Origin: Bacteroidales bacterium UBA1216
GTDB taxonomy: Bacteria > Bacteroidota > Bacteroidia > Bacteroidales > Paludibacteraceae
Assembly (NCBI GenBank): GCA_002309255.1
Contig: DBXI01000076.1
Location: 30,946-94,945 of the forward strand
Direction of reading: 5' to 3'
Length of the DNA: 64,000 nt
Below are positions 6,085 through 58,036 of the stretch, one piece after another. The notes under the pieces are model-generated. The model was not told the origin of the DNA and did not search any database. It saw only the letters and a program-made list of their open reading frames with translations. Each line of letters begins with the position of its first letter. Position 1 is the first letter of the stretch. A program made the translations under genes and the position numbers.

Positions 6085-7452
6085 ATGGAACAAATACAAT
6101 CTTTACTACGTGACAAGACTTGGGCACGTTGGACAGTGCTCGTGCTTGTGGCATCGATGATGTTCTTCGCATACATGTTCGTGGACATCTTGTCGCCACT
6201 GGCGTCATTGCTGAACGATACACTGGGTTGGGATCAGGGCGTGTTTGGCACGTATGCAGCTGGTGAGTACCTGCTGAACGTGTTCGGATTCCTGATCATC
6301 GCCGGTATTATCCTGGACAAGATGGGTGTGCGCTTCACCGGCCTGCTCAGTGCCTCGCTGATGGTAATCGGTGCGGCAATCAAGTACTGGGGTATATCGT
6401 GGGCGGATGCTAACACCGTAAGTTGGCTTAACTCGTGGTGGACAACGATGCCAGGTTCGGCTAAGCTGGCTATGTTCGGCTTCATGATCTTCGGCTGCGG
6501 CGCGGAGATGGCTGGCACAACGGTAAGCAAGATCCTCGCCAAGTGGTTCAAAGGCAAGGAGATGGCACTGGCTATGGGGCTGGAGATGGCTATCGCACGT
6601 CTGGGCGTGTTTGCCGCCATGTGGCTCTCGCCGATGTTCAGTTTGCACTTTGCAGTCAACGGCACGAACTCTGTGGTAGCACCGCTGCTGTTCTCCGCTC
6701 TGCTGCTCGTGATAGGCCTCTTGAATTTCTTCGTGTTCACGATTATGGACAATAAGTTCGACAAGCAACTCGTAGCTATCGGAGAAGCACCTGCCGTACA
6801 TGATCCGGAGGATGAGTTCCATGTGAGCGATCTGGGGAAGATCTTCTCGAGCAAGATGTTCTGGATCGTGGCTCTGCTGTGCGTGTTGTACTACTCGGCT
6901 ATCTTCCCCTTCCAGCGCTTTGCTACGAACTTCCTAGAGGAAACACTGAGCATCTCGAACGCTGAGGCTGCGGGGCTATTCAAGTGGTTCCCGATATTGG
7001 CGATGGTGCTGACGCCGTTCTTGGGCGCGTTCATCGACTACAAGGGCAAGGGCGCATCGATGATGATGTTAGGCGCTGTGATCATGATAGCCTGCCACTG
7101 CATCTTCGCCTTCGTGTTGCCCGCATATCCGAGCAAGGTGCTGGCGCTGATCACAATCCTCGTGCTGGGCGTGAGCTTCTCGCTGGTGCCGGCATCGATG
7201 TGGCCGAGTGTGCCTAAGATCATCGACGAGAAGGTGCTGGGTTCGGCTTACTGCCTGATCTTCTGGGTGCAGAACGTAGGCTTGTGCCTTGTGCCTCTGC
7301 TTATAGGCAAGCTGCGCGTGGCTACCGATGGCTATCTGGTGCCGATGATCGTGTTCGCATCATTCGGCGTACTGGCCTTCTTCCTGAGTCTGGCACTTAA
7401 GGTTGAGGATAAGAAGAAAGGTTACGGCCTCGAATTGCCCAACAAGAAATAA
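6085..7452 (+). CDS. MFS transporter
   Basis: About 12 predicted TM segments with an MFS-like loop (DKMGVRFTG). The ATG at 6085 is preferred over the track's GTG at 6067. Confidence 0.8.
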   Translation: MEQIQSLLRDKTWARWTVLVLVASMMFFAYMFVDILSPLASLLNDTLGWDQGVFGTYAAGEYLLNVFGFLIIAGIILDKMGVRFTGLLSASLMVIGAAIKYWGISWADANTVSWLNSWWTTMPGSAKLAMFGFMIFGCGAEMAGTTVSKILAKWFKGKEMALAMGLEMAIARLGVFAAMWLSPMFSLHFAVNGTNSVVAPLLFSALLLVIGLLNFFVFTIMDNKFDKQLVAIGEAPAVHDPEDEFHVSDLGKIFSSKMFWIVALLCVLYYSAIFPFQRFATNFLEETLSISNAEAAGLFKWFPILAMVLTPFLGAFIDYKGKGASMMMLGAVIMIACHCIFAFVLPAYPSKVLALITILVLGVSFSLVPASMWPSVPKIIDEKVLGSAYCLIFWVQNVGLCLVPLLIGKLRVATDGYLVPMIVFASFGVLAFFLSLALKVEDKKKGYGLELPNKK

Positions 7453-9568: not shown

Positions 9569-10384
9569 ATGTCAGTACATACACAAAATACCCGCCTGAC
9601 GACCACTAAGATCCGTCAGATGAAACAAGTCGGTGAGAAGATCACCATGCTTACGTCGTACGACTTCACCTTAGCCCGTCTGGTGGATCAGGCAGGTGTG
9701 GAGATAATCCTGGTGGGCGACAGTGCGTCGAACATCGTGTGTGGCAACCAGTACACACTGCCCATCACGCTGGATGAAATGATCTTCCTGACGAAGGGTG
9801 TTGTTCGTGCCGCCGAGCATAGCCTGGTGGTAGCAGATATGCCTTTCGGTTCGTATCAGGTCCGCGATGACGAGGCGGTACGCAACGCCATCCGCATGCT
9901 CAAGGAGAGTGGTGCTGATGCCGTTAAGCTTGAGGGCGGGCAGGAGATAGCCGATGCCATCCGCAGGATGGTGGTTGCAGGTGTGCCTGTCTGCGGTCAT
10001 CTGGGGCTGACACCGCAGAGCGTGAACCAGCTGGGGGGATACGGACTGCGTGCTAAGGAAGAGGCGGAAGCGGAGAAGCTGATAGCTGATGCTCGCGCGC
10101 TGGATAAAGCAGGGTGCTTCTGCATCGTGCTGGAGAAGATCCCCGCCGCGCTGGCTGAGCGTGTGACCCGTGAGGTCAGTTGTCCGACAATAGGTATTGG
10201 TGCCGGAGCAGGAACCGACGGACAGGTGCTGGTGCTGCACGATATGCTCGGACTGAACGAAGGATTCAAGCCTAAGTTCCTCCGCCAGTTCGCACACCTG
10301 AATGAAGAGGTGCACAAGGCGCTGACCGCATACGTAGAGGCGGTGAAGGACAGCTCGTTCCCCTCCGCCGAGGAGAGCTACTGA
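9569..10384 (+). CDS. panB: 3-methyl-2-oxobutanoate hydroxymethyltransferase
   Basis: KITMLTSYDF, ILVGDSASN, KLEGG and GHLGLTPQS are KPHMT motifs. Confidence 0.93.
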   Translation: MSVHTQNTRLTTTKIRQMKQVGEKITMLTSYDFTLARLVDQAGVEIILVGDSASNIVCGNQYTLPITLDEMIFLTKGVVRAAEHSLVVADMPFGSYQVRDDEAVRNAIRMLKESGADAVKLEGGQEIADAIRRMVVAGVPVCGHLGLTPQSVNQLGGYGLRAKEEAEAEKLIADARALDKAGCFCIVLEKIPAALAERVTREVSCPTIGIGAGAGTDGQVLVLHDMLGLNEGFKPKFLRQFAHLNEEVHKALTAYVEAVKDSSFPSAEESY

Positions 10385-13254: not shown

Positions 13255-13294
13255 CTTGAGATATTCAAAGATTTAATGATTCAAATTTCAATGA

Positions 13295-14695
13295 TTAGAA
13301 GCCCGAATACACTACTTCCAGCTCCAGCTTGTACTGCGGGTGTTGAGCACTGTAGATCTCCGTAGCTGTAAGTGATTGATTGTAACTCACATCCGTAATT
13401 GTATACGATGTAGAGGTGCTTGTTGTACTGATGCTTACCGGCACAAGTAGCATCTCCAGCGTCTCGTATCTATCCTCGCGCAGTTGCTCGGTGAGCAGGG
13501 TGGACAGGTCGAACTCATACGAGTACGTTGTTACATCCAGTGTGTCCGTCTGTGACTGCAAGGTGGCATACATCGCTATGCTGTCGGACAGGACGATCTC
13601 ATCGTTGAAGAGCCGCTCAAGGTCACCCTTGCGGATGAGCAGCATGTTCTGCGCCGGCTGCGCCCAATCGTCGCGCGTGCGCTGCGAGGCAACACCATCG
13701 TAGTGGTTGAGCACGGGTAGGGATATATGCGCGCGGTTCACATAGGCTCGACGTGAGCCCACCGCCTGGGTGATCGACTCCTTCATCGCCGACATCGGGA
13801 ATGACAGCTGCGTGTAGATATGTGCCGGAGAGATGATGAAGTTCGTATCCGGATTTTGCTCCAGCGCCTGCAGATCGCTCTCTTGCCATACATAGCGGTT
13901 GAGCTGACGCACCTCGCGGTTGGCATACAAGCCTTTCATGTCCTGTTCAACTATAGTATCTACGCCTGCGCGCAAATAGGGGAAGTGGTAGTAGATCGCC
14001 ATGTTCACATCTATGATACTCAACAGCGTTGCACCACCGAACTCGGGCGTGATATATACACCGAAGAACTGCTTGTTGAACGCCTCCTGCGACGAGTAGT
14101 CGCTCAGCGAAAACATCTTCTTCGCCCACTGATCGTTGAGCCGCAATGTGATTGTTGGGATATACTGCTCCGAATTGTACGTACTATCCGTATAACGGTT
14201 GGCTGTAATTATTGCCGGACGATCCAACATCCGCGTCGAATCATCCATACTGCAGAACACATCGATCGCCGTGTCGCTGCGCAGAGGCTCGTTATAGGCA
14301 AACGTAGCACGATCCATCGCGTAGGCATTGATGGCCAAAGGTGCATTCCCGTCGCCGTATGCATTGCGGTAGTATAGGAACAGACAAACCGAGTCCAGCT
14401 CTGCACCCTCCGGAAAACGGAAACCAATAGGGCAAGCCAACTGCGTCAGCAGATCGGCGTGCAGATGGCCGTACTTGCTGTCCAACTCACCTATCATGAA
14501 CGAATCAGGCGTAGCGGTAACAGCACCACCACGGACCAGCGCCGACGTCAGACTGAACGTGTCGGAACGAACGATGATGGAGTCCTCCGACTCCAGCACA
14601 GAAGCACCCGCGCTCACTACATCGTCCTTACACGATGAAAAACTGATTAGCAGAACTGCTAACAGAGGAAAAACAATCTTTATCTTACGAATCAT
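13295..14695 (-). CDS. DUF4270-like lipoprotein
   Basis: Lipobox (LLISFSSC). Sequence pattern and position downstream of the short glycogen-synthase-like gene match the Bacteroidetes DUF4270 family, from memory. Confidence 0.65.
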   Translation of the reverse strand: MIRKIKIVFPLLAVLLISFSSCKDDVVSAGASVLESEDSIIVRSDTFSLTSALVRGGAVTATPDSFMIGELDSKYGHLHADLLTQLACPIGFRFPEGAELDSVCLFLYYRNAYGDGNAPLAINAYAMDRATFAYNEPLRSDTAIDVFCSMDDSTRMLDRPAIITANRYTDSTYNSEQYIPTITLRLNDQWAKKMFSLSDYSSQEAFNKQFFGVYITPEFGGATLLSIIDVNMAIYYHFPYLRAGVDTIVEQDMKGLYANREVRQLNRYVWQESDLQALEQNPDTNFIISPAHIYTQLSFPMSAMKESITQAVGSRRAYVNRAHISLPVLNHYDGVASQRTRDDWAQPAQNMLLIRKGDLERLFNDEIVLSDSIAMYATLQSQTDTLDVTTYSYEFDLSTLLTEQLREDRYETLEMLLVPVSISTTSTSTSYTITDVSYNQSLTATEIYSAQHPQYKLELEVVYSGF

Positions 14696-16597: not shown

Positions 16598-16696
16598 TCG
16601 AGACTGCTTCGAGACTTTATCGAGGTTTTACCGAGGTTTTGTCGAGACCACCCTAGACAATACTCGAGACATCTTCGAGACATTCTCGAGACTATC
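16598..16696 (+). repeat. 9 x 11-bp phased array with 7-bp core TCGAGAC
   Basis: Unit starts are at 16598, 16609, 16620, 16631, 16642, 16653, 16664, 16675 and 16686, exactly 11 bp apart. Cores read TCGAGAC, TCGAGAC, TCGAGGT, CCGAGGT, TCGAGAC, CTAGACA, TCGAGAC, TCGAGAC, TCGAGAC, with variable 4-nt spacers. Confidence 0.95.
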
Positions 16697-29140: not shown

Positions 29141-29715
29141 CGTTCGCGGTTGATAGTGGGTAGGGTGGTGCGGTAGTGAAATGGGTAGGGGTGTTTCTTG
29201 CCTTCCAGCGTTGCTTTGCCGTCTAGCACCAAGGTGTCGCCCACGTAGGCTACGCTCATCATTGCTTCCGTTATAGGCAGCACGCTGTAGCTCGTCTCGC
29301 CCATTAGCAGCACGTAACTGCCGGCGTAACTCCCATCGTAGTTCACGCCTCGCAAGAAGTGCATCAACTGCGCCGTCGAGTCGCTCGCGTATGTGCCTTC
29401 AGGCAGAAAATCAGAGGCTTTTCTCGCCTTTATCGCAGCAGTGGGAACGAAGATATCGCTGATGTATAGATTCGTACCTACACCCTCCATCTTGCCGTCC
29501 TTGTTCAGACCCAAGCCCTTCGAGTATAGATCTAGACTGACTACATCATACGACACTCCCTCTACCTTGTAGAACGCACCGTAGTACTCCAGCCTACCCG
29601 AAGTCAGTACGCTATCCAGCGACTGGTACGTGATCGCCGGCTGAGGCTTGTAGCAACCCGTCAGCACCAACGAAAGCGACAATGCCATGTATATATATAT
29701 GAATGTACAACGCAT
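29137..29715 (-). CDS. hypothetical lipoprotein
   Basis: Lipobox LVLTGC after MRCTFIYIYMALSLS. The ATG at 29715 is preferred over the track's TTG at 29724. 4-nt overlap with the xerD start. Confidence 0.6.
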   Translation of the reverse strand: MRCTFIYIYMALSLSLVLTGCYKPQPAITYQSLDSVLTSGRLEYYGAFYKVEGVSYDVVSLDLYSKGLGLNKDGKMEGVGTNLYISDIFVPTAAIKARKASDFLPEGTYASDSTAQLMHFLRGVNYDGSYAGSYVLLMGETSYSVLPITEAMMSVAYVGDTLVLDGKATLEGKKHPYPFHYRTTLPTINRER

Positions 29716-29720
29716 AAATA

Positions 29721-29748
29721 TCAATTGTCAATTATCAATTTTCAACTT
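29721..29748. repeat. heptad array (minus strand AAGTTGA|AAATTGA|TAATTGA|CAATTGA)
   Basis: Plus strand reads tcaattg|tcaatta|tcaattt|tcaactt. It encodes the last codons (..KLKIDN*) and the stop of the permease gene, and it fills the spacer to the next gene. Confidence 0.9.
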
Positions 29749-30948
29749 TCTCGCGGGTATCCACGCCGCCAATGCTCCGAGCAGCAGCACAGCGGTCAAC
29801 ACGATTAGCACATCCATCGCCTGGACGCTTACGGGGTAGGCCGACAGTACGTAGTTCATGCCGTTGCCGAGTTTGAGCAGCCCGAACTGCTGCTGCAGCG
29901 CGCACACTGTCACACCAATCACCGCCCCAACCAGCGCGCCGAACGCGCTGATCAGCCAACCCTCGTACAGGAAGATGCGGCGGATCATCGGCTCGTCGGC
30001 ACCTAAGGTGTGCAGCAGACGAATATCCTCTTTCTTGTCCAAGATCAGCATCGATAGCGAGCTGATGATATTAAAGCTGGCTATCAGCAGGATGAACACC
30101 AACAACAGTGCTGTCAGCCACTTCTCAATCATCTGTATGCGGTAGAAATCCGCCTGTTGCTCATAGCGGTTGAGCACCGTATAGTCCTCGCCCAGCGTGT
30201 TTGTGATAGCCTTCTGCACCATCCTTACCGATGCCCCCTCCTTTAATTTGAGCTCAATTGCCGTGGCTTGCGATTCGCTGTACTCAAATAGCTCGCGCGC
30301 CAGCGGCAAGGAGATGAGCATGTACGTGTCGTCGTATTTCGTCTGGTTAACGGCAAACACACCGGCGATGAACACACTCTTGCTGCGGAAGTTCTCGTCC
30401 GGACGCAGCATGTTCACCCGCCCCACGCGCTTGGGGGCGTATATATGCACGGGTGATATGAAGTGCGCGCCTATACCTATTGTATTAGCCAGCCCCACAC
30501 CCATCACACAGCGCTCGAATGCTCCGTCCCACACGGCGTAACTGCCGTCGATCAGTATGCTGTCGATAGCCGTTAGCGACTGGTAGGTGGTGTCCACACC
30601 CTTCAGCAGCGCAGGCACCTGACGACCACGGAACTCTACCAGAGCCGTCTCTTCAACAGTTGGCGCAACAATCGCAACCTCCGGCATCTCAAACAGAGTT
30701 TGTATGCGTGCATCAGCCAGCTCGAGCACCTTACTCGATGCAGGTGTGATGCGCAGTTCAGCGTCCAACTGCGAGAACATCTGCTCTACTACCTCGCCAA
30801 AACCGTTCATCACACTCAGCACGCAAATCATTGCCGCTGTCACCACTGCAACAGCCACACTCGATACGCCCGAGATGATGTTGATCGCGTTCTGACGCTT
30901 CTTCGCCACCAAGTATCGCCAAGCTATGTGTCCCTCAACCTTGAGCAT
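29728..30948 (-). CDS. FtsX-like ABC transporter permease (LolC/LolE family)
   Basis: HIAWRYLVAKKRQNAINIISGVS N-terminus, large periplasmic loop, C-terminal FtsX domain. Confidence 0.82.
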   Translation of the reverse strand: MLKVEGHIAWRYLVAKKRQNAINIISGVSSVAVAVVTAAMICVLSVMNGFGEVVEQMFSQLDAELRITPASSKVLELADARIQTLFEMPEVAIVAPTVEETALVEFRGRQVPALLKGVDTTYQSLTAIDSILIDGSYAVWDGAFERCVMGVGLANTIGIGAHFISPVHIYAPKRVGRVNMLRPDENFRSKSVFIAGVFAVNQTKYDDTYMLISLPLARELFEYSESQATAIELKLKEGASVRMVQKAITNTLGEDYTVLNRYEQQADFYRIQMIEKWLTALLLVFILLIASFNIISSLSMLILDKKEDIRLLHTLGADEPMIRRIFLYEGWLISAFGALVGAVIGVTVCALQQQFGLLKLGNGMNYVLSAYPVSVQAMDVLIVLTAVLLLGALAAWIPARKLKIDN

Positions 30949-31418: not shown

Positions 31419-31446
31419 TTAACTGTTAATTGTTAACCGTTAATTA
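31419..31446. repeat. 4 x 7-bp array TTAACTG|TTAATTG|TTAACCG|TTAATTA
   Basis: Read directly. The last unit contains the rpmH stop codon (TTA at 31444-31446 on the plus strand). Confidence 0.9.
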
Positions 31447-31602
31447 TTTCTTGTGACGTCCTTCGTCGGCTACAGTCAGTTTCTTTCTGCCTTTAGCACG
31501 GCGAGCAGCCAGCACGCGGCGACCATTAGCGGTTGCCATTCTCTCTAAAAAGCCGTGTTTGTTACGACGCTTACGTTGCGAAGGTTGAAATGTACGTTTC
31601 AT
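31444..31602 (-). CDS. rpmH: 50S ribosomal protein L34
   Basis: Manual translation gives [52 protein letters not shown] (52 aa). Below the track cutoff. Classic L34 sequence. Confidence 0.95.
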
Positions 31603-31679: not shown

Positions 31680-31687
31680 CAAAGGTA
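31680..31687 (-). promoter_or_regulatory. -7 box TACCTTTG (minus strand), with -33 TTTG at 31708-31711
   Basis: Reverse complement of caaaggta with a 20-nt spacer to TTTG, inside aaatttgcatatat. Upstream of rpmH. Confidence 0.7.
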
Positions 31688-31814
31688 CGACTTTTTTTTT
31701 ATATATGCAAATTTTTTGTGCAGTTTTTTCAAAAAAGTTGATTTTCATAGTGCTAATCGCCCACACAATGTGACAAAATAGGTGTAATTTCCGATCTGGG
31801 AGGTGTTTATCCGT

Positions 31815-34702: not shown

Positions 34703-34764
34703 GGAAAGTGAAAAGTGAAGTAGTCGTTCGAGTGTAACGAGATAAGAAAAGTGAAAGGTGAAAG
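34703..34764 (+). repeat. two heptad blocks (GGAAAGT|GAAAAGT|GAAGTAG ... GAAAAGT|GAAAGGT|GAAAG) flanking a small hairpin; fills the AraC-miaB spacer
   Basis: Read directly. The second block ends exactly at the miaB ATG (34765). Confidence 0.85.
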
Positions 34765-36415: not shown

Positions 36416-36580
36416 ATGGCTAAGAAGAAGTCAAAGAAAAATGTCCCTGTTCTTCCGCAGGTGGTACAACAACCGATGCCTGTACCGGAAGTGGAAGAAG
36501 AGTTGTTCGACCTGAGCAATCCCGATGAGTTTCGCAAAGCCTTTATTGCCTCAGAGATATTGGGTAGGAAATACTGTTGA
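36416..36580 (+). CDS. small ORF, 54 aa (MAKKKSKKNVPVLPQVVQQPMPVPEVEEELFDLSNPDEFRKAFIASEILGRKYC)
   Basis: ATG at 36416, TGA at 36578-36580. Below the track cutoff. Non-repetitive composition with a basic N-terminus and acidic core. The only ORF filling the gap upstream of greA. Confidence 0.45.
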   Translation: MAKKKSKKNVPVLPQVVQQPMPVPEVEEELFDLSNPDEFRKAFIASEILGRKYC

Positions 36581-36613
36581 AATGTGAAAGGTGAAAATTG
36601 AAAGATAAAAGGA
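36579..36613 (+). repeat. heptad array GAAATGT|GAAAGGT|GAAAATT|GAAAGAT|AAAAGGA in the greA leader
   Basis: Read directly. It starts inside the stop codon of the 54-aa ORF. Confidence 0.9.
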
Positions 36614-36644: not shown

Positions 36645-37115
36645 ATGGCAACAACTTACATGACTGCAGAAGGTCTGCAAAAACTAAAAGAAGAGCTGTC
36701 GTTCCTCGAGAGCGTAGAACGCCCACGAGTGATTGCGGCAATCGCTGAGGCACGCGACAAGGGCGACCTGAGTGAGAATGCCGAGTACGACGCTGCGAAA
36801 GAAGAACAAGGACATCTGGAAACACGCATTGCTATCCTCAAAAGCAAGATCGTAGATGCACGAATTATTGATGAGAGCTCTATCAACACCGATGAGGTGC
36901 AGATTCTCACACGCGTGCGAGTACGTAATAAGAGGAATAATGCTGAAAAAGTGTACCAGATCGTAACCGAGGGAGAGGCAAACATCGCTGAGGGCAAGAT
37001 TGCGTCCACCACACCTATTGCCAAAGGTTTGTTGGGCAAGAGAGTGGGCGAGGTGGCACAAGTGAGCGTGCCGGCCGGCATACTTGAGTTGGAAGTGATG
37101 GAGATAAGCCTCTAA
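36645..37115 (+). CDS. greA: transcription elongation factor GreA
   Basis: YMTAEGLQKLKEEL...ARDKGDLSENAEYDAAKEEQ is the GreA signature. Confidence 0.95.
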   Translation: MATTYMTAEGLQKLKEELSFLESVERPRVIAAIAEARDKGDLSENAEYDAAKEEQGHLETRIAILKSKIVDARIIDESSINTDEVQILTRVRVRNKRNNAEKVYQIVTEGEANIAEGKIASTTPIAKGLLGKRVGEVAQVSVPAGILELEVMEISL

Positions 37116-37148
37116 GAATAGAAAGTTGAAAACTGAAAATTGAAAGAT
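37114..37148 (+). repeat. heptad array AAGAATA|GAAAGTT|GAAAACT|GAAAATT|GAAAGAT
   Basis: Runs from the greA stop codon to 1 nt before the HIT gene ATG. Confidence 0.9.
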
Positions 37149-37557: not shown

Positions 37558-37583
37558 TAGTTGAATATTGAAAATTGAAAGTT
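37556..37583 (+). repeat. heptad array GATAGTT|GAATATT|GAAAATT|GAAAGTT
   Basis: Starts within the HIT stop codon. Lies in the mreB leader. Confidence 0.9.
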
Positions 37584-43434: not shown

Positions 43435-43489
43435 CTCTCGATGATGTCTCGATGAAGTCTCGATATTGTCTCGACAAAGTCGGACAAAA
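43435..43489 (-). repeat. 5 x 11-bp phased array, same TCGAGAC core family as 16598-16696 but in inverted orientation
   Basis: Plus strand reads ctctcgatgat|gtctcgatgaa|gtctcgatatt|gtctcgacaaa|gtcggacaaaa. Unit starts are at 43435, 43446, 43457, 43468 and 43479. The reverse complement gives TCGAGAC cores. Confidence 0.95.
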
Positions 43490-50038: not shown

Positions 50039-50115
50039 ATTCATCCGACTCTGACGCTTGATAAAAAATATTGCAAAAAAATATGAAATTATTTGCAAAT
50101 GTCAAATATTTTTTG

Positions 50116-50123
50116 TAACTTTG
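50116..50123 (+). promoter_or_regulatory. -7 box TAACTTTG, with -33 TTTG at 50092-50095
   Basis: Canonical 20-nt spacing. The -33 sits in tatttgcaaatg. Lies 49 nt upstream of the ATG at 50172. Confidence 0.7.
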
Positions 50124-50171: not shown

Positions 50172-51641
50172 ATGCAACTATCAGAACTTTTCACACAAGC
50201 CACGGGCAAGCCGGCAGGCGAGCAGACTTCTCTGACCGCATCAGGGAGCAACCGGCGTTATTTTCGTATATGGAGCGAGGATAAGCAGGTGACGCTCATC
50301 GGCGTAGAAGGTACGTCGCATGACGAGAATCATGCTTTCCTTATGATGGCTGCGCACTTTGCCGGCCAGGAACTGAATGTTCCACGCGTGCTCGCTGTCA
50401 GTGAAGACGAGATGCTATATGTGCAGGAAGACCTGGGTAATACGCTGCTATTTGACTACATAGCCGAGGGGCGAAAAACCGGTGTGTTCTGCGAACGTGA
50501 GAAAGTGATGCTCAGAAAAACCATACGTGCGTTAGCACGCTTTCAACTGAAGGCGGCAGAGAATTTTGACTTCAACGTATGCTACCCGCAGCCGGAGTTC
50601 AACTTGAGGAGTATCCGCTGGGATCTGAACTACTTCAAGTACTGCTTCCTTAAAGCAACGGGGCTTGAGTTCCAGGAGGATAAACTGGAAAATGAGTTTG
50701 AGCGCCTGGCATATATCCTGCTTCAGCAGAAGCAGATGAATGCATTCATGTACCGTGACTTTCAGAGCCGTAACGTGATGGTTGTTGAAAGTCAAAAGTC
50801 GAAAGTCGAAAGCGATAGAGAGTTGGAGCCGTACTTCATCGACTTCCAGGGCGGAAGGCGTGGCCCCATATACTACGATGTCGCCTCGTTCCTGTGGCAA
50901 GCTAAGGCGAACTTCCACGATGAGCTGCGCCACGAACTCATCGAGGAATATCTAGATGAACTATGTAAGTACATAGAGGTTGACAAGAAGGAGTTCTACG
51001 CCACGCTCCGGCACTTCGTGCTCTTCCGGACGATGCAGGTGCTCGGTGCTTATGGCTTCCGCGGCTACTTTGAGAAGAAACCCCACTTCTTGCAATCTAT
51101 ACCCTTTGCTATCGAGAATCTCCGCCGTCTGCTCAAAGACGCAGCGGATGACTACCCTTACCTGATCGAGGTGCTGCACGAGATGACCGAGATGAAACAG
51201 TTCAAGGAGGTGAATGTTAGGAAACCGCTGGTGGTGAAGGCCTATTCGTTCTCGTTCAAGAAAGGAATCCCTGCGGATGATAGCGGCAATGGTGGCGGCT
51301 TTGTGTTCGATTGCCGTGCGGTGAACAACCCCGGTAAGTACGAGCGCTATAACCACTACACCGGTATGGATGAGCCGGTAATCAAGTTCCTGGAGGAGGA
51401 TGGCGAGATCTTCCCCTTCCTGGATGCAGCCTACCGATTGGTGGATGCCAGCGTCAAGCGCTACAAGGATCGTGGGTTCACCAGTCTCATGGTCAGCTTC
51501 GGCTGCACGGGCGGACAGCACCGCTCTGTTTATGCCGCCGAGAAGATGGCAGAACACATCAACGAGAAATTCGGCGTCGAGGTGCGCCTCATTCACCGCG
51601 AACAGAACGTGGAACGCACACTCCCGGAGAAAGAAAAATGA
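50172..51641 (+). CDS. fusion protein: AmgK-like anomeric sugar kinase (APH fold) + RapZ C-terminal-like domain
   Basis: N-terminal half has YRDFQSRNVMV (catalytic loop) and IDFQGGRRGPIYYDVASFL (DFQ..GP..YD motif of AmgK-type kinases). C-terminal half has FVFDCRAVNNPG and SFGCTGGQHRSVYAAEKMAEHI (RapZ/YhbJ C-domain signature GCTGGQHRSV). Confidence 0.75.
   Translation: MQLSELFTQATGKPAGEQTSLTASGSNRRYFRIWSEDKQVTLIGVEGTSHDENHAFLMMAAHFAGQELNVPRVLAVSEDEMLYVQEDLGNTLLFDYIAEGRKTGVFCEREKVMLRKTIRALARFQLKAAENFDFNVCYPQPEFNLRSIRWDLNYFKYCFLKATGLEFQEDKLENEFERLAYILLQQKQMNAFMYRDFQSRNVMVVESQKSKVESDRELEPYFIDFQGGRRGPIYYDVASFLWQAKANFHDELRHELIEEYLDELCKYIEVDKKEFYATLRHFVLFRTMQVLGAYGFRGYFEKKPHFLQSIPFAIENLRRLLKDAADDYPYLIEVLHEMTEMKQFKEVNVRKPLVVKAYSFSFKKGIPADDSGNGGGFVFDCRAVNNPGKYERYNHYTGMDEPVIKFLEEDGEIFPFLDAAYRLVDASVKRYKDRGFTSLMVSFGCTGGQHRSVYAAEKMAEHINEKFGVEVRLIHREQNVERTLPEKEK
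50787..50814 (+). repeat. in-frame heptad array GAAAGTC|AAAAGTC|GAAAGTC|GAAAGCG inside the kinase CDS
   Basis: Encodes ESQKSKVES, located between the catalytic loop and the DFQ motif. Confidence 0.9.
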
Positions 51642-51643
51642 CA

Positions 51644-51671
51644 AAATTGCAAATGATTAAATTGTAAATGA
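51644..51671 (+). repeat. heptad array AAATTGC|AAATGAT|TAAATTG|TAAATGA
   Basis: Fills the spacer after the kinase stop. The last unit contains the ATG at 51668. Confidence 0.85.
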
Positions 51672-52414
51672 AGTCGATGATTTTTGCGGCGGGGCTGGGT
51701 ACGCGGCTCAAGCCTTTCACCGATAACCATCCTAAGGCGCTGTTGCCGCTGGCAGGAAAGACCTTGCTGCAATGGCAAATAGATAAGTTGCTTGCGGTAG
51801 GGGTGACGGATATAGTGGTGAATGTGCACCACTTTGCCGATCAGATCGTCGAATATCTGCTGTCAAACAGCGGCTTCGGCAGCAGGCTGCAGATCAGCGA
51901 CGAACGCGAGGTGTTGCTTGAGACGGGGGGCGGATTGCTGAAGGCGGCAGAACTGCTTGAAGAGGATGAACCGGTGCTGGTGTGCAATGTGGATATATTG
52001 TCCAACGTCGACCTAGGGGCATTCATCGCCGCGCATCAAGCCGACGAACTGGCTACGATCGTTGTATCCAATCGCGAGACACAGCGGTACTTGCTGTTTG
52101 ATGAGGAGGGGAAACTGCAAGGGTGGACGAACAAGAAAACAGGTGAAGTGAGACCGGATGGATTAACGGTGAGTGGGCTGACGATGTTAGCATTCTCCGG
52201 TATGCAGATAGTATCACCGGCCTTCTTTAGAGAACTACGGAAAGTGAGAGAGGAGAAAGGGGATAAGTTCTCGCTCATTGATGCATATTTGTCAGTAGTA
52301 AGCCGGCAGGCAGGCGTCATCCGAGCCTACGTGCCGCAAGATTATAAGATGATGGATGTGGGAAAGATTGAACAACTCGGCGAAGCCGAACGATTTGCAG
52401 AAGAATTATGTTAG
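51668..52414 (+). CDS. sugar-1-phosphate nucleotidyltransferase (MurU-like)
   Basis: MIFAAGLGTRLKPFTDNHPKALLP is an NTP-transferase G-loop. 248 aa, adjacent to an AmgK-like kinase as in the AmgK/MurU salvage pair. Confidence 0.8.
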   Translation: MKSMIFAAGLGTRLKPFTDNHPKALLPLAGKTLLQWQIDKLLAVGVTDIVVNVHHFADQIVEYLLSNSGFGSRLQISDEREVLLETGGGLLKAAELLEEDEPVLVCNVDILSNVDLGAFIAAHQADELATIVVSNRETQRYLLFDEEGKLQGWTNKKTGEVRPDGLTVSGLTMLAFSGMQIVSPAFFRELRKVREEKGDKFSLIDAYLSVVSRQAGVIRAYVPQDYKMMDVGKIEQLGEAERFAEELC

Positions 52415-53334
52415 GAGTAATTATCAATCCCAAATCGGGTAAAAAAGCTTACCGTCGGCAACGAATGTACCTGTGGAACCTATTGCGCGAGCGCCATATA
52501 CCTTATGAGTTCCGCGTAACCAAATATGCTGCTCATGCTACGGAGTTGGCGCGCGAACTGGTAGAGGATTTTGGCTGCGACGAGATCCTTGTTATAGGCG
52601 GCGATGGCACATTGTCAGAAACACTGAACGGAATCATGCGCGCCAAGATCTCTGCAGAGCAACGTAGGAAGATCCAACTCGGTCTGATGCCTCGTGGCAC
52701 AGGCAACGATTGGGGCAGGTACTGGAACCTGACGAAGAACTACCGTGATGCTATTGAGCGTTTCCTGTCGGGCGAAGGCCATCCGCTGGATGTGGGATGC
52801 GTCACGTACTGGCGCAATCATATTGAGCACCATCGCTACTTCATCAACTCCGTAGGATTCGGTGTCGATCCGCTGTGTTGCCAGAAAGCTGAGAAACTCA
52901 AGTACTACCTCGGCTCACATCACGTGAACTACCTGTTCGGATTGATCGGAGCTATCATGGAGCAGAAACCGATACCCATGCAACTGGTGGTGGATGGAGA
53001 GGTGCTGGTGCACGAAGCCTTGTTCACCATGAATGTAGGCAATGGCCCATATTCAGGAGGTGGTATCAAGCAGAATCCTGATGCCGACCCACAGGACGGC
53101 GTATTCCATGGGATGTTCGTGTGCAAGCCTACACTCATACAAATCATCCGTGCATTGCCTAACCTATTCAATGGCAAACTGACCGAACTTCCGTTCATCC
53201 ATGCCTATGTGGGCAAGGATATCCGTATGGAGACCGAAGAACATTTGCTCTTTGAGGCTGATGGCATATTGCAGAATGTGATGGGACCATGTGAGGTGCA
53301 TTGTATCCATCATGCTTTACAATTTAAAGTATAG
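52408..53334 (+). CDS. diacylglycerol/lipid kinase family protein (YegS/BmrU-like)
   Basis: IINPKSGKK..., ILVIGGDGTLSE DAGK catalytic motif, 308 aa. 7-nt overlap with the upstream gene. Confidence 0.82.
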   Translation: MLGVIINPKSGKKAYRRQRMYLWNLLRERHIPYEFRVTKYAAHATELARELVEDFGCDEILVIGGDGTLSETLNGIMRAKISAEQRRKIQLGLMPRGTGNDWGRYWNLTKNYRDAIERFLSGEGHPLDVGCVTYWRNHIEHHRYFINSVGFGVDPLCCQKAEKLKYYLGSHHVNYLFGLIGAIMEQKPIPMQLVVDGEVLVHEALFTMNVGNGPYSGGGIKQNPDADPQDGVFHGMFVCKPTLIQIIRALPNLFNGKLTELPFIHAYVGKDIRMETEEHLLFEADGILQNVMGPCEVHCIHHALQFKV

Positions 53335-53375
53335 AAAGGTGAAAGTTGAAAGGTGAAAATTGAAAGGTGGAAGAG
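53334..53375 (+). repeat. 6 x 7-bp array GAAAGGT|GAAAGTT|GAAAGGT|GAAAATT|GAAAGGT|GGAAGAG
   Basis: Starts on the last base of the lipid kinase stop codon and contains the candidate rsmH GTG start (53367). Confidence 0.95.
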
Positions 53376-54269
53376 GTTGTGTATCATATTCCTGCGATGC
53401 TGAATGAGGTGCTTGATGGCCTGCATATCGATGCCGACCGCGAGCAGGTGTTCGTTGATGCCACGTTTGGCGGCGGCGGACATAGCCGGGGCATCATAGA
53501 GCGCATGAGCAGTCGTTCGCGGCTCTTCGGTATAGATCAGGATCTGGATGCTTACGCCAACTGCATCAGCGATGAGCGGTTCACGTTCGTGAGAAGTAAC
53601 TTCCGCTACATTGCTAACTTCATGGATTACTATGGCGTAGAGCAGGTGGATGGTATATTGGCTGACTTGGGTGTAAGTTTTCATCACTTCGATGCTGGCG
53701 AACGAGGCTTCTCTTTCCGCTTCGATGCGCCGCTTGATATGCGCATGAACAGGCGACAGAAACTATCGGCAGCCGATGTTATTAATAACTACAGCGAGGA
53801 AGATTTGGCGCGCGTAATGTATCTATACGGTGAGTTCCGCGACTCACACGCCATGGCGCGGCAGATCGTCAGCCGCCGCACTCTGCAGGCGATTCTCACC
53901 ACGCAGCAGTTGCTCGATAGTGTCCGTCTAAAGGACAAACAAGATGCAGCACGACTCTTCCAAGCCCTGCGCATAGAGGTTAACGATGAGCTCGGCGCCC
54001 TGCGCGAACTCCTGCAGGCCGCAACACAACTGCTCGCGCCTGGCGGACGACTGGTGATCCTGACATACCACTCATTGGAGGATCGCATCGTCAAGAACTT
54101 TATGCGCTCGGGTAACACCGAAGGATCAATAGAGAAAGACTTCTACGGGAATATACTGACCCCCTTCAAGGTGATAGAGAAAGGACGCAGCGCCTCTGCC
54201 GATGAGGTGGAGCGAAATCCTCGCGCACGATCTGCCAAGCTCCGCGTAGCAGAACGCTTAAATGACTAA
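53367..54269 (+). CDS. rsmH: 16S rRNA (cytosine1402-N4)-methyltransferase
   Basis: YHIPAMLNEVL, DATFGGGGHS, DLGVSFHHFD and SLEDRIVKNF are RsmH/MraW motifs. Start is uncertain: GTG at 53367 or in-frame GTG at 53379. The last codons (AAT GAC TAA) lie in the TAAATGACTAAAT motif. Confidence 0.9.
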   Translation: MEEVVYHIPAMLNEVLDGLHIDADREQVFVDATFGGGGHSRGIIERMSSRSRLFGIDQDLDAYANCISDERFTFVRSNFRYIANFMDYYGVEQVDGILADLGVSFHHFDAGERGFSFRFDAPLDMRMNRRQKLSAADVINNYSEEDLARVMYLYGEFRDSHAMARQIVSRRTLQAILTTQQLLDSVRLKDKQDAARLFQALRIEVNDELGALRELLQAATQLLAPGGRLVILTYHSLEDRIVKNFMRSGNTEGSIEKDFYGNILTPFKVIEKGRSASADEVERNPRARSAKLRVAERLND

Positions 54270-54311
54270 ATGGTCAAATACATGATAAAATAGTAAATGT
54301 CTAAATGAGGA

Positions 54312-57974: not shown

Positions 57975-58036
57975 TTACATAGCCAAATGATTAAATAAAT
58001 GGCCAAATGGTAAATGACTAAATTGTAAATTACTTT

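Follow-up and report, generated by a model that had tools for sequence, protein, structure and literature searches.

A heptanucleotide array between a lipid-kinase-like gene and rsmH belongs to a class of 7- and 11-nt tandem arrays in Paludibacteraceae

Why should the gap between two genes at the head of a cell-wall gene cluster consist almost entirely of copies of a seven-nucleotide (nt) unit, and does the repetition do anything for the gene that follows? The question is raised by a 64,000-nt stretch from Bacteroidales bacterium UBA1216 (Paludibacteraceae; contig DBXI01000076.1, positions 30,946–94,945, hereafter "the window"), in which a lipid-kinase-like gene is separated from rsmH, the gene for the 16S rRNA m4C1402 methyltransferase, by a tandem array at 53334–53366 on the + strand. 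The original prediction, made from the letters alone, had described six units over 53334–53375. Direct reading of the window confirmed the letters (GAAAGGT GAAAGTT GAAAGGT GAAAATT GAAAGGT GGAAGAG), but only about 4.7 heptads, namely the first four and a final GAAAG, make up the spacer, and the presumed sixth unit consists of rsmH codons. The full sequence of 53332–53375 is TAG followed by AAAGGTGAAAGTTGAAAGGTGAAAATTGAAAG and GTGGAAGAG. As predicted, the array starts on the last base of the upstream stop codon, the G of TAG 53332–53334, and it runs up to the GTG at 53367. Tandem Repeats Finder (TRF) reported 53334–53373 both with period 7 (5.7 copies, 78% matches, score 52) and with period 14 (2.9 copies, 88% matches, score 66); the longer period scores better, and 14-nt double units describe the array best. 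It is a feature beyond chance: a 19-mer from it has eight matches in the window at up to three mismatches, where 0.00 are expected, and TRF found 17 arrays in the window compared to about two weak ones (2.0) in block-shuffled windows.

The kinase-like gene (52408–53334, +) is an open reading frame (ORF) of 308 amino acids with the Pfam domains DAGK_cat (PF00781, 2.3e-27) and YegS_C (PF19279, 4.5e-21). For rsmH (53367–54269, +), recognized from the Pfam domain Methyltransf_5 and by alignment of homologues, GTG 53367 (MEEVVYHIPAML...) is most likely the start. As had been proposed, it is the first in-frame start candidate; it follows an in-frame TGA at 53361, and it straddles units 5 and 6 instead of lying inside unit 5. 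Among the 120 best RsmH homologues, 83 start six residues ahead of the H in the conserved HIPAML (MxExVYHIPAML), a position that aligns with GTG 53367, and codons 1–3 (M-E-E) are conserved, as GTG GAA GAG at the same place in one relative (locus L086) and as ATG GAA GAA in another (L001). In the product of GTG 53367, the Methyltransf_5 (MraW) profile begins at residue 6; a start at ATG 53397 would therefore truncate the domain. The gene caller behind P0001 placed the start at GTG 53379, and a truncated start was picked by the gene caller in 19 of the 120 homologues. Because of the conserved codons and the fit to the Pfam profile, we regard the GTG and the GGAAGAG as rsmH codons and not as repeat. 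The closest named relatives are ruminant-gut Paludibacteraceae metagenome-assembled genomes (MAGs), with RsmH proteins 82–87% identical to that of the window, which is likewise from a ruminant-gut member of the family.

The spacer between the kinase stop and GTG 53367 is 32 nt long and, in agreement with the earlier description, is purine-rich and C-free (A16 G10 T6 C0), is predicted to be unstructured (folding z = +1.2 for the array) and lies in the sense orientation directly before a start that lacks a Shine–Dalgarno (SD) sequence. There is no G-run longer than 2, and the antisense strand (ACCTTTC repeats) is C-rich and G-free. TGA stops occur at 53340, 53347, 53354 and 53361, that is, in frames 0, 1, 2 and 0. 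The array also contains copies of the start region (53339–53362, +): GTG 53339 and TTG 53346 open five-codon mini-ORFs closed by TGA, and GTG 53353 and TTG 53360 open out-of-frame ORFs of 15–16 codons that cross the rsmH start. Gain or loss of a unit was expected to shift the rsmH frame; this does not hold, since the whole array falls between the kinase stop and the rsmH start. There was no Rfam match in the window at the gathering threshold and none in 53000–53700 at E ≤ 1, and a tRNA scan found nothing.

For comparison, we assembled a survey set of the window plus 83 non-redundant loci (84 loci, 1.50 Mb; loci are denoted by L numbers). All of them lie around rsmH, and orthologous spacers are thus sampled repeatedly; the sequences are mostly MAGs, with genes called by our own codon-usage caller, which makes absolute intergenic and coding numbers approximate. 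The nearest species with identical synteny (L082, L087, L086, L001 and L002) have no array at the kinase–rsmH junction, which measures −1 nt in L082 and L087 (a TAATG overlap), 6 nt in L086, 13 nt in L001 and 4 nt in L002. Since sister species with the same gene order have junctions of only −1 to 13 nt and no array, the array in the window is young and species-specific, the product of a recent expansion. The L086 junction reads TAG TTGATT GTGGAAGAG, and that of the window ends with ...ATTGAAAG GTGGAAGAG. The repeat unit (TGAAAGG/GAAAGGT) therefore looks as if it derived from the old spacer and the first bases of the start codon, duplicated by 7 and then by 14 nt. Other junctions are also longer in the window than in the sister species: rsmH–ftsL (42 nt, compared to 12 and 9), murE–mraY (62 nt, compared to 36 and 9; here L082 also has a TAAATG-type array) and amgK–murU (26 nt, compared to 8 and 21). 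The sole other contig with identical proteins, L081 (a Logan assembly from SRR094437), is 100% identical over 3,278 nt and possibly comes from the same sample. No match came from public metagenome contigs, which were scanned for the junction with spacers of every length from 11 to 41 nt.

Elsewhere in the clade, the spacer upstream of rsmH does carry arrays, and the units at this orthologous position differ between species: (AAACATT)x7 in L008 and x4 in L011, (ACCACTG/A)x5 in L015, (GTCGAAA)x4 in L010, a TAAATGG-type unit in L013, and 11-mers such as CTAATCACCCG in L017 and L036. Across the 1.50 Mb, TRF found 320 intergenic arrays (1.47/kb) compared to 190 coding arrays (0.148/kb), an approximately 10-fold higher density between genes; a cruder gene caller gave a 14-fold enrichment. 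The intergenic periods were sharply restricted: 149 arrays had period 7, 80 had period 11, 36 had period 8 and 15 had period 9, with at most 8 arrays at any other period. Exact-match lag runs in the spacers, counted independently of TRF, numbered 32 at lag 7 and 26 at lag 11, with smaller counts for lags 14 (9) and 8 (5) and zero at lags 5, 6, 9, 12 and 13; shuffled spacers were virtually free of runs, with none at lags of 5 or more. A 50-kb Escherichia coli dcw region contained two arrays, of periods 3 and 6, and none of 7 or 11 nt. At least one array of period 7, 8, 11 or 14 was present in 73 of the 84 loci (median 2.4 per 10 kb), and several of the most distant loci had none. The array upstream of rsmH is one product of a phenomenon that spans the Paludibacteraceae loci surveyed. 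We found no description in the literature of the simple sequence repeat (SSR) content of this family.

The heptads are not confined to spacers. Of 233 heptad arrays, 84 lie in coding sequence, mostly with 4–5 copies, and 70 of these 84 are more than 60 nt from both gene ends. In protein alignments, one loop of MurE is longer by seven amino acids (3 × 7 nt) in six species, which use different units (NGQWTMDNGQ, NLKSQISNLK, NQQSSISNHQS, EVESQKSKVES and others); the in-frame murE arrays are found at 13286–13320 in L008, 13240–13272 in L013, 13216–13248 in L016, 13368–13404 in L017, 13514–13543 in L026 and 13557–13587 in L036. The window and the sister species have no insertion in this loop. A second MurE loop is longer by nine amino acids in three species. 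The window has a coding heptad array of its own, GAAAGTC x3.7 at 50787–50812 (+) inside the APH/PapZ_C gene, which encodes ESQKSKVES, a peptide also present in the L036 MurE. Wherever a perfect heptad repeat would place an in-frame stop in a coding array, the unit is mutated. Because heptads also occur in frame within genes, at least the 7-nt class presumably reflects a process at the level of DNA that is filtered by local tolerance, and these insertions argue against the class existing for the sake of a leader function.

Whole-unit changes could be seen between related loci: 21 nt (3 × TAAACAT) between L008 and L011, 7 and 14 nt between L007 and L028 (≈96% identity), 7 nt between L028 and L038, 14 nt between L031 and L037, and 14 nt inside a gene between L015 and L054. 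The indel spectrum derived from BLAST consisted mostly of 1-nt alignment gaps, with divergent spacers left unaligned, and was used for individual whole-unit examples only. Between L082 and L087, which represent strains ≈95% identical, none of eight indels added or removed a unit of an array, so that on this scale the degenerate arrays are not hypermutable. The same pair of strains is polymorphic for a 24-nt tandem duplication, GATGCTACAATCATAACCATTACA (L082 6759–6782), in the promoter-proximal spacer that precedes the APH/PapZ_C gene, and an array of an 11-mer of TATCCTACGGT type nearby (6490–6535) is common to L082, L086 and L087.

Unlike heptads, 11-mers are rare in genes (4 of 84). Sequence families shared across genomes are also more pronounced for 11-mers (7.5-fold above expectation) than for heptads (1.8-fold). 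Many species have conserved the 11-nt family (C)TAATCACCNNN in the 5′ portion of the spacer between mraZ and rsmH, where variable heptad arrays follow it; it is found at 9943–9976 in L017, 9933–9976 in L036, 9892–9922 in L052, 9896–9939 in L045, 9863–9907 in L059, 9869–9912 in L053, 9791–9842 in L061, 9839–9883 in L063 and 9902–9947 in L021. Rich in C and poor in G, the unit looks similar to the 3′ end of 16S rRNA, GAUCACCUCCU; a putative Rho loading site, a mimic of the rRNA tail and a DNA-binding site are ideas for its role. The same unit occurs in the window in a divergent spacer at 453–509, as AATCACCTACT x5.2. Other period-11 arrays in the window, with a TCGAGAC/TCTCGAT core, occupy two unlinked co-directional spacers (16598–16648 and 16663–16692; 43436–43481), and related TCGAGG/TCGGGG 11-mers occur in L006 (9924 and 3882) and L012.

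We then considered what the arrays might do for the genes next to them; most of the functions put forward in the original prediction were not supported. The predicted minimum free energy of the arrays (−0.064 kcal/mol/nt) was weaker than that of array-free spacers (−0.105) and coding windows (−0.161). Relative to shuffles of their own bases, however, the mean z was about −0.5. The low structure is an effect of composition, and structure avoidance by the repeat arrangement was rejected, since the arrays are no less structured than their own shuffles. An array is present in 23–39% of co-directional junctions of at least 15 nt, compared to 3 of 34 convergent ones, and arrays are common in divergent spacers too. 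The predicted association of period-7 arrays with starts held in part: the sense strand of the arrays is A-rich for genes on either DNA strand, and many arrays lie in spacers that precede genes, but they end within 10 nt of a start no more often (42%) than under uniform placement within the spacer (39%). The sense A-richness extends to arrays in genes and likewise to array-free spacers. Arrays adjoin the upstream stop in 41% of cases, compared to 29% under uniform placement. A stop triplet is present in 128 of 173 sense-strand units, compared to 88 for the antisense strand and to the 106.5 predicted by shuffling the bases of the units (z ≈ 4.3), an excess that could result from selection, from seeding by stop codons or from ascertainment by the gene caller. 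A role of the array as a required enhancer for rsmH is not supported, as it is absent from the nearest species with the same synteny, heptad arrays occur in coding sequence and the low structure is compositional. The landing pad for S1 or an RNA-binding protein that had also been suggested is a candidate role.

The lack of an SD sequence upstream of rsmH was confirmed: 53335–53366 contains neither GGAG nor GAGG, and only GAAAGG and AGGTGA, which are complementary to the flanks of the anti-SD. Over all loci, the stretch from −25 to −1 includes a hexamer that could pair with the canonical 16S tail in 58 of 953 genes (6%), compared to 46 ± 6 in shuffles and 84 in coding controls; these tests used the canonical tail, which may differ here, as no locus includes a 16S gene. 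The array thus has no complementarity to the anti-SD core, in a clade without general SD use. GAAAGG itself occurs 36 times in the window (22.4 expected) and upstream of 12 of the 953 genes (about 6 expected). The suggested pairing of GAAAGG with the 16S tail is not supported, given the low frequency of tail-complementary hexamers and the finding that Bacteroidia ribosomes sequester the 16S 3′ tail and are blind to SD sequences (Naeem et al. 2026, PMC13000453). Separately, AAGGAG (23 compared to 6.6 expected) and AGGAGG (11 compared to 3.1) exceed expectation between −25 and −1 in a small fraction of the 953 genes, among which an autoregulation like that of rpsU is a possibility.

The gene order around the array is APH/PapZ_C kinase, NTP-transferase, DAGK/YegS, rsmH, ftsL, ftsI, murE, mraY, murD and ftsW. 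A Bacteroidetes-type promoter motif (TTTG-N-TAACTTTG; six matches in the window, 0.68 expected) lies upstream of the cluster at 50092–50123 (+). No further motif of this type occurs on the + strand downstream of it, and the one nearest to the array is therefore 3.2 kb upstream. These positions suggest that the array is probably internal to one long polycistronic mRNA. A sigma-70 scan match across the array (TTGAAA-16-TATCAT) was set aside, since Bacteroidetes promoters are of the TTTG/TAnnTTTG type. The three genes that precede the dcw genes, an APH-kinase/RapZ-C (PapZ_C) fusion, the NTP-transferase and the DAGK/YegS-like kinase, take the place of mraZ in the window (50172–53334) as well as in L082, L086 and L087 (6786–10001). 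A search found no mraZ in the window or in L001–L004, L082 and L086; more distant Paludibacteraceae retain mraZ–rsmH.

The array is probably a young, lineage-specific heptanucleotide SSR, made by slippage, near-neutral, and tolerated by an initiation mechanism that does not depend on SD sequences. The ancestral junction would have been roughly TAG-TTGA..-GTG, a few bases between the kinase stop and the rsmH start that grew by tandem duplication and slipped-strand expansion, a 7-nt duplication coming before the 14-nt ones. A tight or overlapping (coupled) stop–start junction within the polycistronic mRNA would thereby have been widened to 32 nt. The array would have been kept since it does little harm: A/G-rich, C-free and unstructured, with an A at −3, it suits SD-independent initiation in Bacteroidia (PMC6847099), and the TGA in each unit would neutralize the duplicated start codons by leaving them with very short or out-of-frame ORFs. 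On this reading, a process acting on Paludibacteraceae DNA yields 7-nt (and 11-nt) arrays where they are tolerated, mostly in spacers but also in surface loops, as in-frame insertions of 21 nt. Several observations weigh against it. Pure neutral slippage does not account for the sharp restriction to 7 and 11 nt, the stop triplets are in excess in the sense units, the GAAAG-type unit, including an identical 19-mer, occurs at six junctions of one genome and always in the sense direction, and arrays are rare in convergent spacers; these points hint at some selection or at a shared source sequence. The recency, moreover, comes from a comparison between species, and our caller assigned ≈85% of the survey sequence to coding regions, so that some arrays are misclassified.

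Selection is central to a rather doubtful alternative, in which the array would be a translation module: an unstructured, A-rich platform for landing or re-initiation (by bS1 or 70S scanning) with stops in three frames, as a substitute for translational coupling at the weak GTG start of rsmH. The sense A-richness on either gene strand, the C-free and structure-free spacer with its A at −3, the stop enrichment, the abundance of arrays in co-directional and divergent spacers and the same-sense family within the genome all agree with such a module, as does the reliance of Bacteroidia initiation on adenines upstream and on little structure; bS1 has been proposed to read positions −12 to −15 (PMC6847099). 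Yet the nearest species manage with an overlapping or 4–13-nt junction, uniform placement would put arrays just as near to starts, heptads also lie within genes, and composition alone gives the low structure. Furthermore, of the favored positions −3, −6, −12 and −13 only −3 is an A, four decoy GTG/TTG codons have been added, and the stop enrichment may stem from stop-codon seeding or ascertainment. A broader proposal, which we regard as unlikely, is that Paludibacteraceae build gene junctions from 7- and 11-nt units, either by a process specific to the lineage or by a selected "modular spacer" system; the heptads would serve as frame-independent stop barriers and SD-free landing pads, 11-mers such as TAATCACCNNN as regulatory sites (Rho loading, rRNA-tail mimics), and the array upstream of rsmH as a recent functional module retuning rsmH and the dcw genes.

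The remaining alternatives have far less in their favor. That the array is a site acting at the level of DNA or transcription, either the operator of a regulator that binds repeats, such as MraZ, or an antisense Rho loading site that suppresses antisense transcripts, is very unlikely; it occupies the position of the mraZ–rsmH spacer of relatives, which carry the conserved 11-mer family, and its antisense strand is C-rich and G-free, but heptad units are not conserved between species, the heptad spacing leaves sites off one helical face, and no mraZ was found in the window or the subclade loci. An MraZ operator in particular, considered from the position before rsmH and the AAAGTG-like units, was rejected for the missing mraZ and the unfit 7-nt spacing. 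Recruitment of ribosomes by SD-like pairing of GAAAGG or AGGTGA units with the 16S 3′ tail strikes us as highly improbable. The canonical tail includes UCACCU, the complement of AGGTGA, and GAAAGG exceeds expectation, but tail-complementary hexamers precede fewer genes than they do coding control windows, and orthologous spacers hold unrelated units such as AAACATT and ACCACTG. We give least credence to a phase-variable contingency locus, in which gain and loss of 7-nt units would switch or tune rsmH at high frequency. Copy number in this class of arrays does change in unit steps between lineages, and there is a precedent in the 7-bp repeats upstream of Haemophilus influenzae hmw1A (PMC8262952). 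The units upstream of rsmH, however, are degenerate, the frame is unaffected, rsmH is a housekeeping gene, the sole other contig is identical, the sister strains lack unit changes and the metagenome scan gave no other alleles; the phase variation foreseen for the array is not supported.

How does the array, probably a near-neutral SSR, compare with repeats described in other bacteria? Long SSRs with units of 5–11 nt (Mrázek, Guo & Shah 2007, as summarized in PMC4679880 and PMC4692102) are most commonly heptanucleotides and mostly intergenic, and according to these summaries polymerase slippage, tied to the polymerase footprint, was proposed as their origin. The arrays described here resemble the long SSRs of those summaries in their short head-to-tail units, dominance of heptads, mostly intergenic location and variation in length and sequence among close relatives. 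They differ from that summarized picture in the many units per genome, a second sharp class of 11 nt that is almost as common, and frequent in-frame heptads in housekeeping enzymes. The array upstream of rsmH itself consists of tandem units no longer than 11 nt at an above-chance frequency; whole-unit copy changes (7, 14 and 21 nt) were seen in the class, while at this locus the sole comparison contig is identical and the variation is one of presence or absence between species.

The closest architectural counterpart is formed by direct repeats of the heptamer TAACTGA, which precede start codons in Beggiatoaceae, in cyanobacteria and in five Bacteroidetes, one of them Paludibacter propionicigenes (MacGregor 2015, PMC4679880), and for which binding of S1, Csp or CsrA has been proposed but is untested (PMC4679880). 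Both systems have 2–6 forward heptads that end a few nt before the start, with some overlap of the upstream stop, stops in three frames and usually no SD sequence; the array upstream of rsmH likewise abuts GTG 53367, has TGA in three frames and lacks an SD. There, however, a single heptamer is used genome-wide and related heptamers are unrepeated, whereas here the unit is GAAAGGT/GAAAGTT and units vary by spacer and species. Since the unit differs, the array lies outside the TAACTGA family. Heptamers are also known from the cyanobacterial short tandemly repeated repetitive (STRR) sequences, reportedly described by Mazel et al. in 1990. Other examples are GGGAATC in Xanthomonas, GGGGAYT in Nostoc and the heptameric repeats of Calothrix (PMC4692102). 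Like the arrays studied here, the STRR, Xanthomonas and Nostoc heptamers are intergenic, often lie between co-directional operon genes, occur at the same junctions in related species and vary in length and sequence, but they are G-rich and prone to form G-quadruplexes, with one dominant unit per genome; our array is A/G-rich, in a genome of mixed vocabulary.

With phase-variable SSRs such as those of H. influenzae hmw1A (PMC8262952), the array shares heptanucleotide tandem repeats placed between upstream signals and a start codon. Contingency tracts, in contrast, are long, perfect and variable within populations and belong to surface or host-interaction genes, whereas this array is short (4.7 units, 78% matches), precedes a housekeeping gene, shows no observed variation, and switches neither a frame nor promoter spacing. 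SD-independent initiation in Bacteroidia is determined by A at −3, −6, −12 and −13 and by few nearby AUGs (Baez et al. 2019, PMC6847099). The spacer resembles such leaders (PMC6847099, PMC13000453) in being unstructured, A-rich and without an SD, with A at −3; their determinants, however, are positional and not tandem repeats, and the array has only the one at −3 and adds decoy GTG and TTG codons. The mixture of units within one genome, the sharp 11-nt period and the frequent in-frame coding insertions set these arrays apart from all of the known systems compared.

By itself, then, the array upstream of rsmH is an ordinary and probably near-neutral repeat, and its context is the more useful part. 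The clade offers abundant, sequence-diverse and fast-evolving 7- and 11-nt arrays, even in frame within essential enzymes, and makes it testable why long SSRs in bacteria favor 7-nt units and whether heptamers close to starts act; Paludibacter propionicigenes is a cultivable relative for such work. For annotation, the arrays matter in that they create false start candidates and ORF extensions.

Within the window, the original prediction had placed the array in a family found at 10 or more junctions, always with period 7. TRF arrays are indeed present in about 16 junctions, but period 7 accounts for only seven of these, and the GAAAG-type unit for six. The periods are not always 7 either, being 11 in three junctions (453, 16598/16663 and 43436) and 8–16 elsewhere. 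The GAAAG-type heptads, all in the sense orientation, are found at 29732 (−), 34746, 36586, 37121–37146, 37563 and 53334–53366. On the minus strand, the array at 29719–29750 lies upstream of a gene starting at 29715. At 34705–34764 (+), two arrays of the family follow each other, AAAGTGA and then GAAAGGT, the second abutting ATG 34765. The heptads at 36578–36612 (+) separate a small ORF from greA, those at 37121–37146 (+; GAAAGTT GAAAACT GAAAATT GAAAG) occupy the junction between greA and the next gene, and those at 37561–37581 (+; TTGAATA TTGAAAA TTGAAAG) come right after a TGA stop. Two unlinked spacers share one and the same 19-mer, GAAAGGTGAAAATTGAAAG, at 36586–36604 and 53348–53366; among 92 loci, its only other exact match was in L081, the contig identical to the window, and none was found in another species. 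The shared 19-mer points either to convergence, with similar start contexts as the source, or to the copying of one array into another.

The small ORF upstream of greA (36645–37115) spans 36416–36580 and encodes 54 amino acids (MAKKKSKKNVPVLPQ...GRKYC); a AAAATAAAT repeat accompanies the heptad array between the two. The gene for ribosomal protein L34, rpmH (31444–31602, −; 52 amino acids), had been missed by length-filtered ORF lists. A TTAACTG x3.9 heptad array (+ strand, 31419–31445) begins at its stop codon, and a Bacteroidetes promoter motif lies near the gene at 31680–31711 (−). Arrays of AAATGA/TAAATGG type are found at 13263–13296, 51636–51671, 57996–58030 and 54270–54311, with a TRF period of 15 (composites of 7 and 8). 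Each of their units holds an ATG and a stop (TAAATGA), which results in chains of mini-ORFs of 4–5 codons just before the real starts. These chains run counter to the depletion of AUG reported near Bacteroidetes starts.

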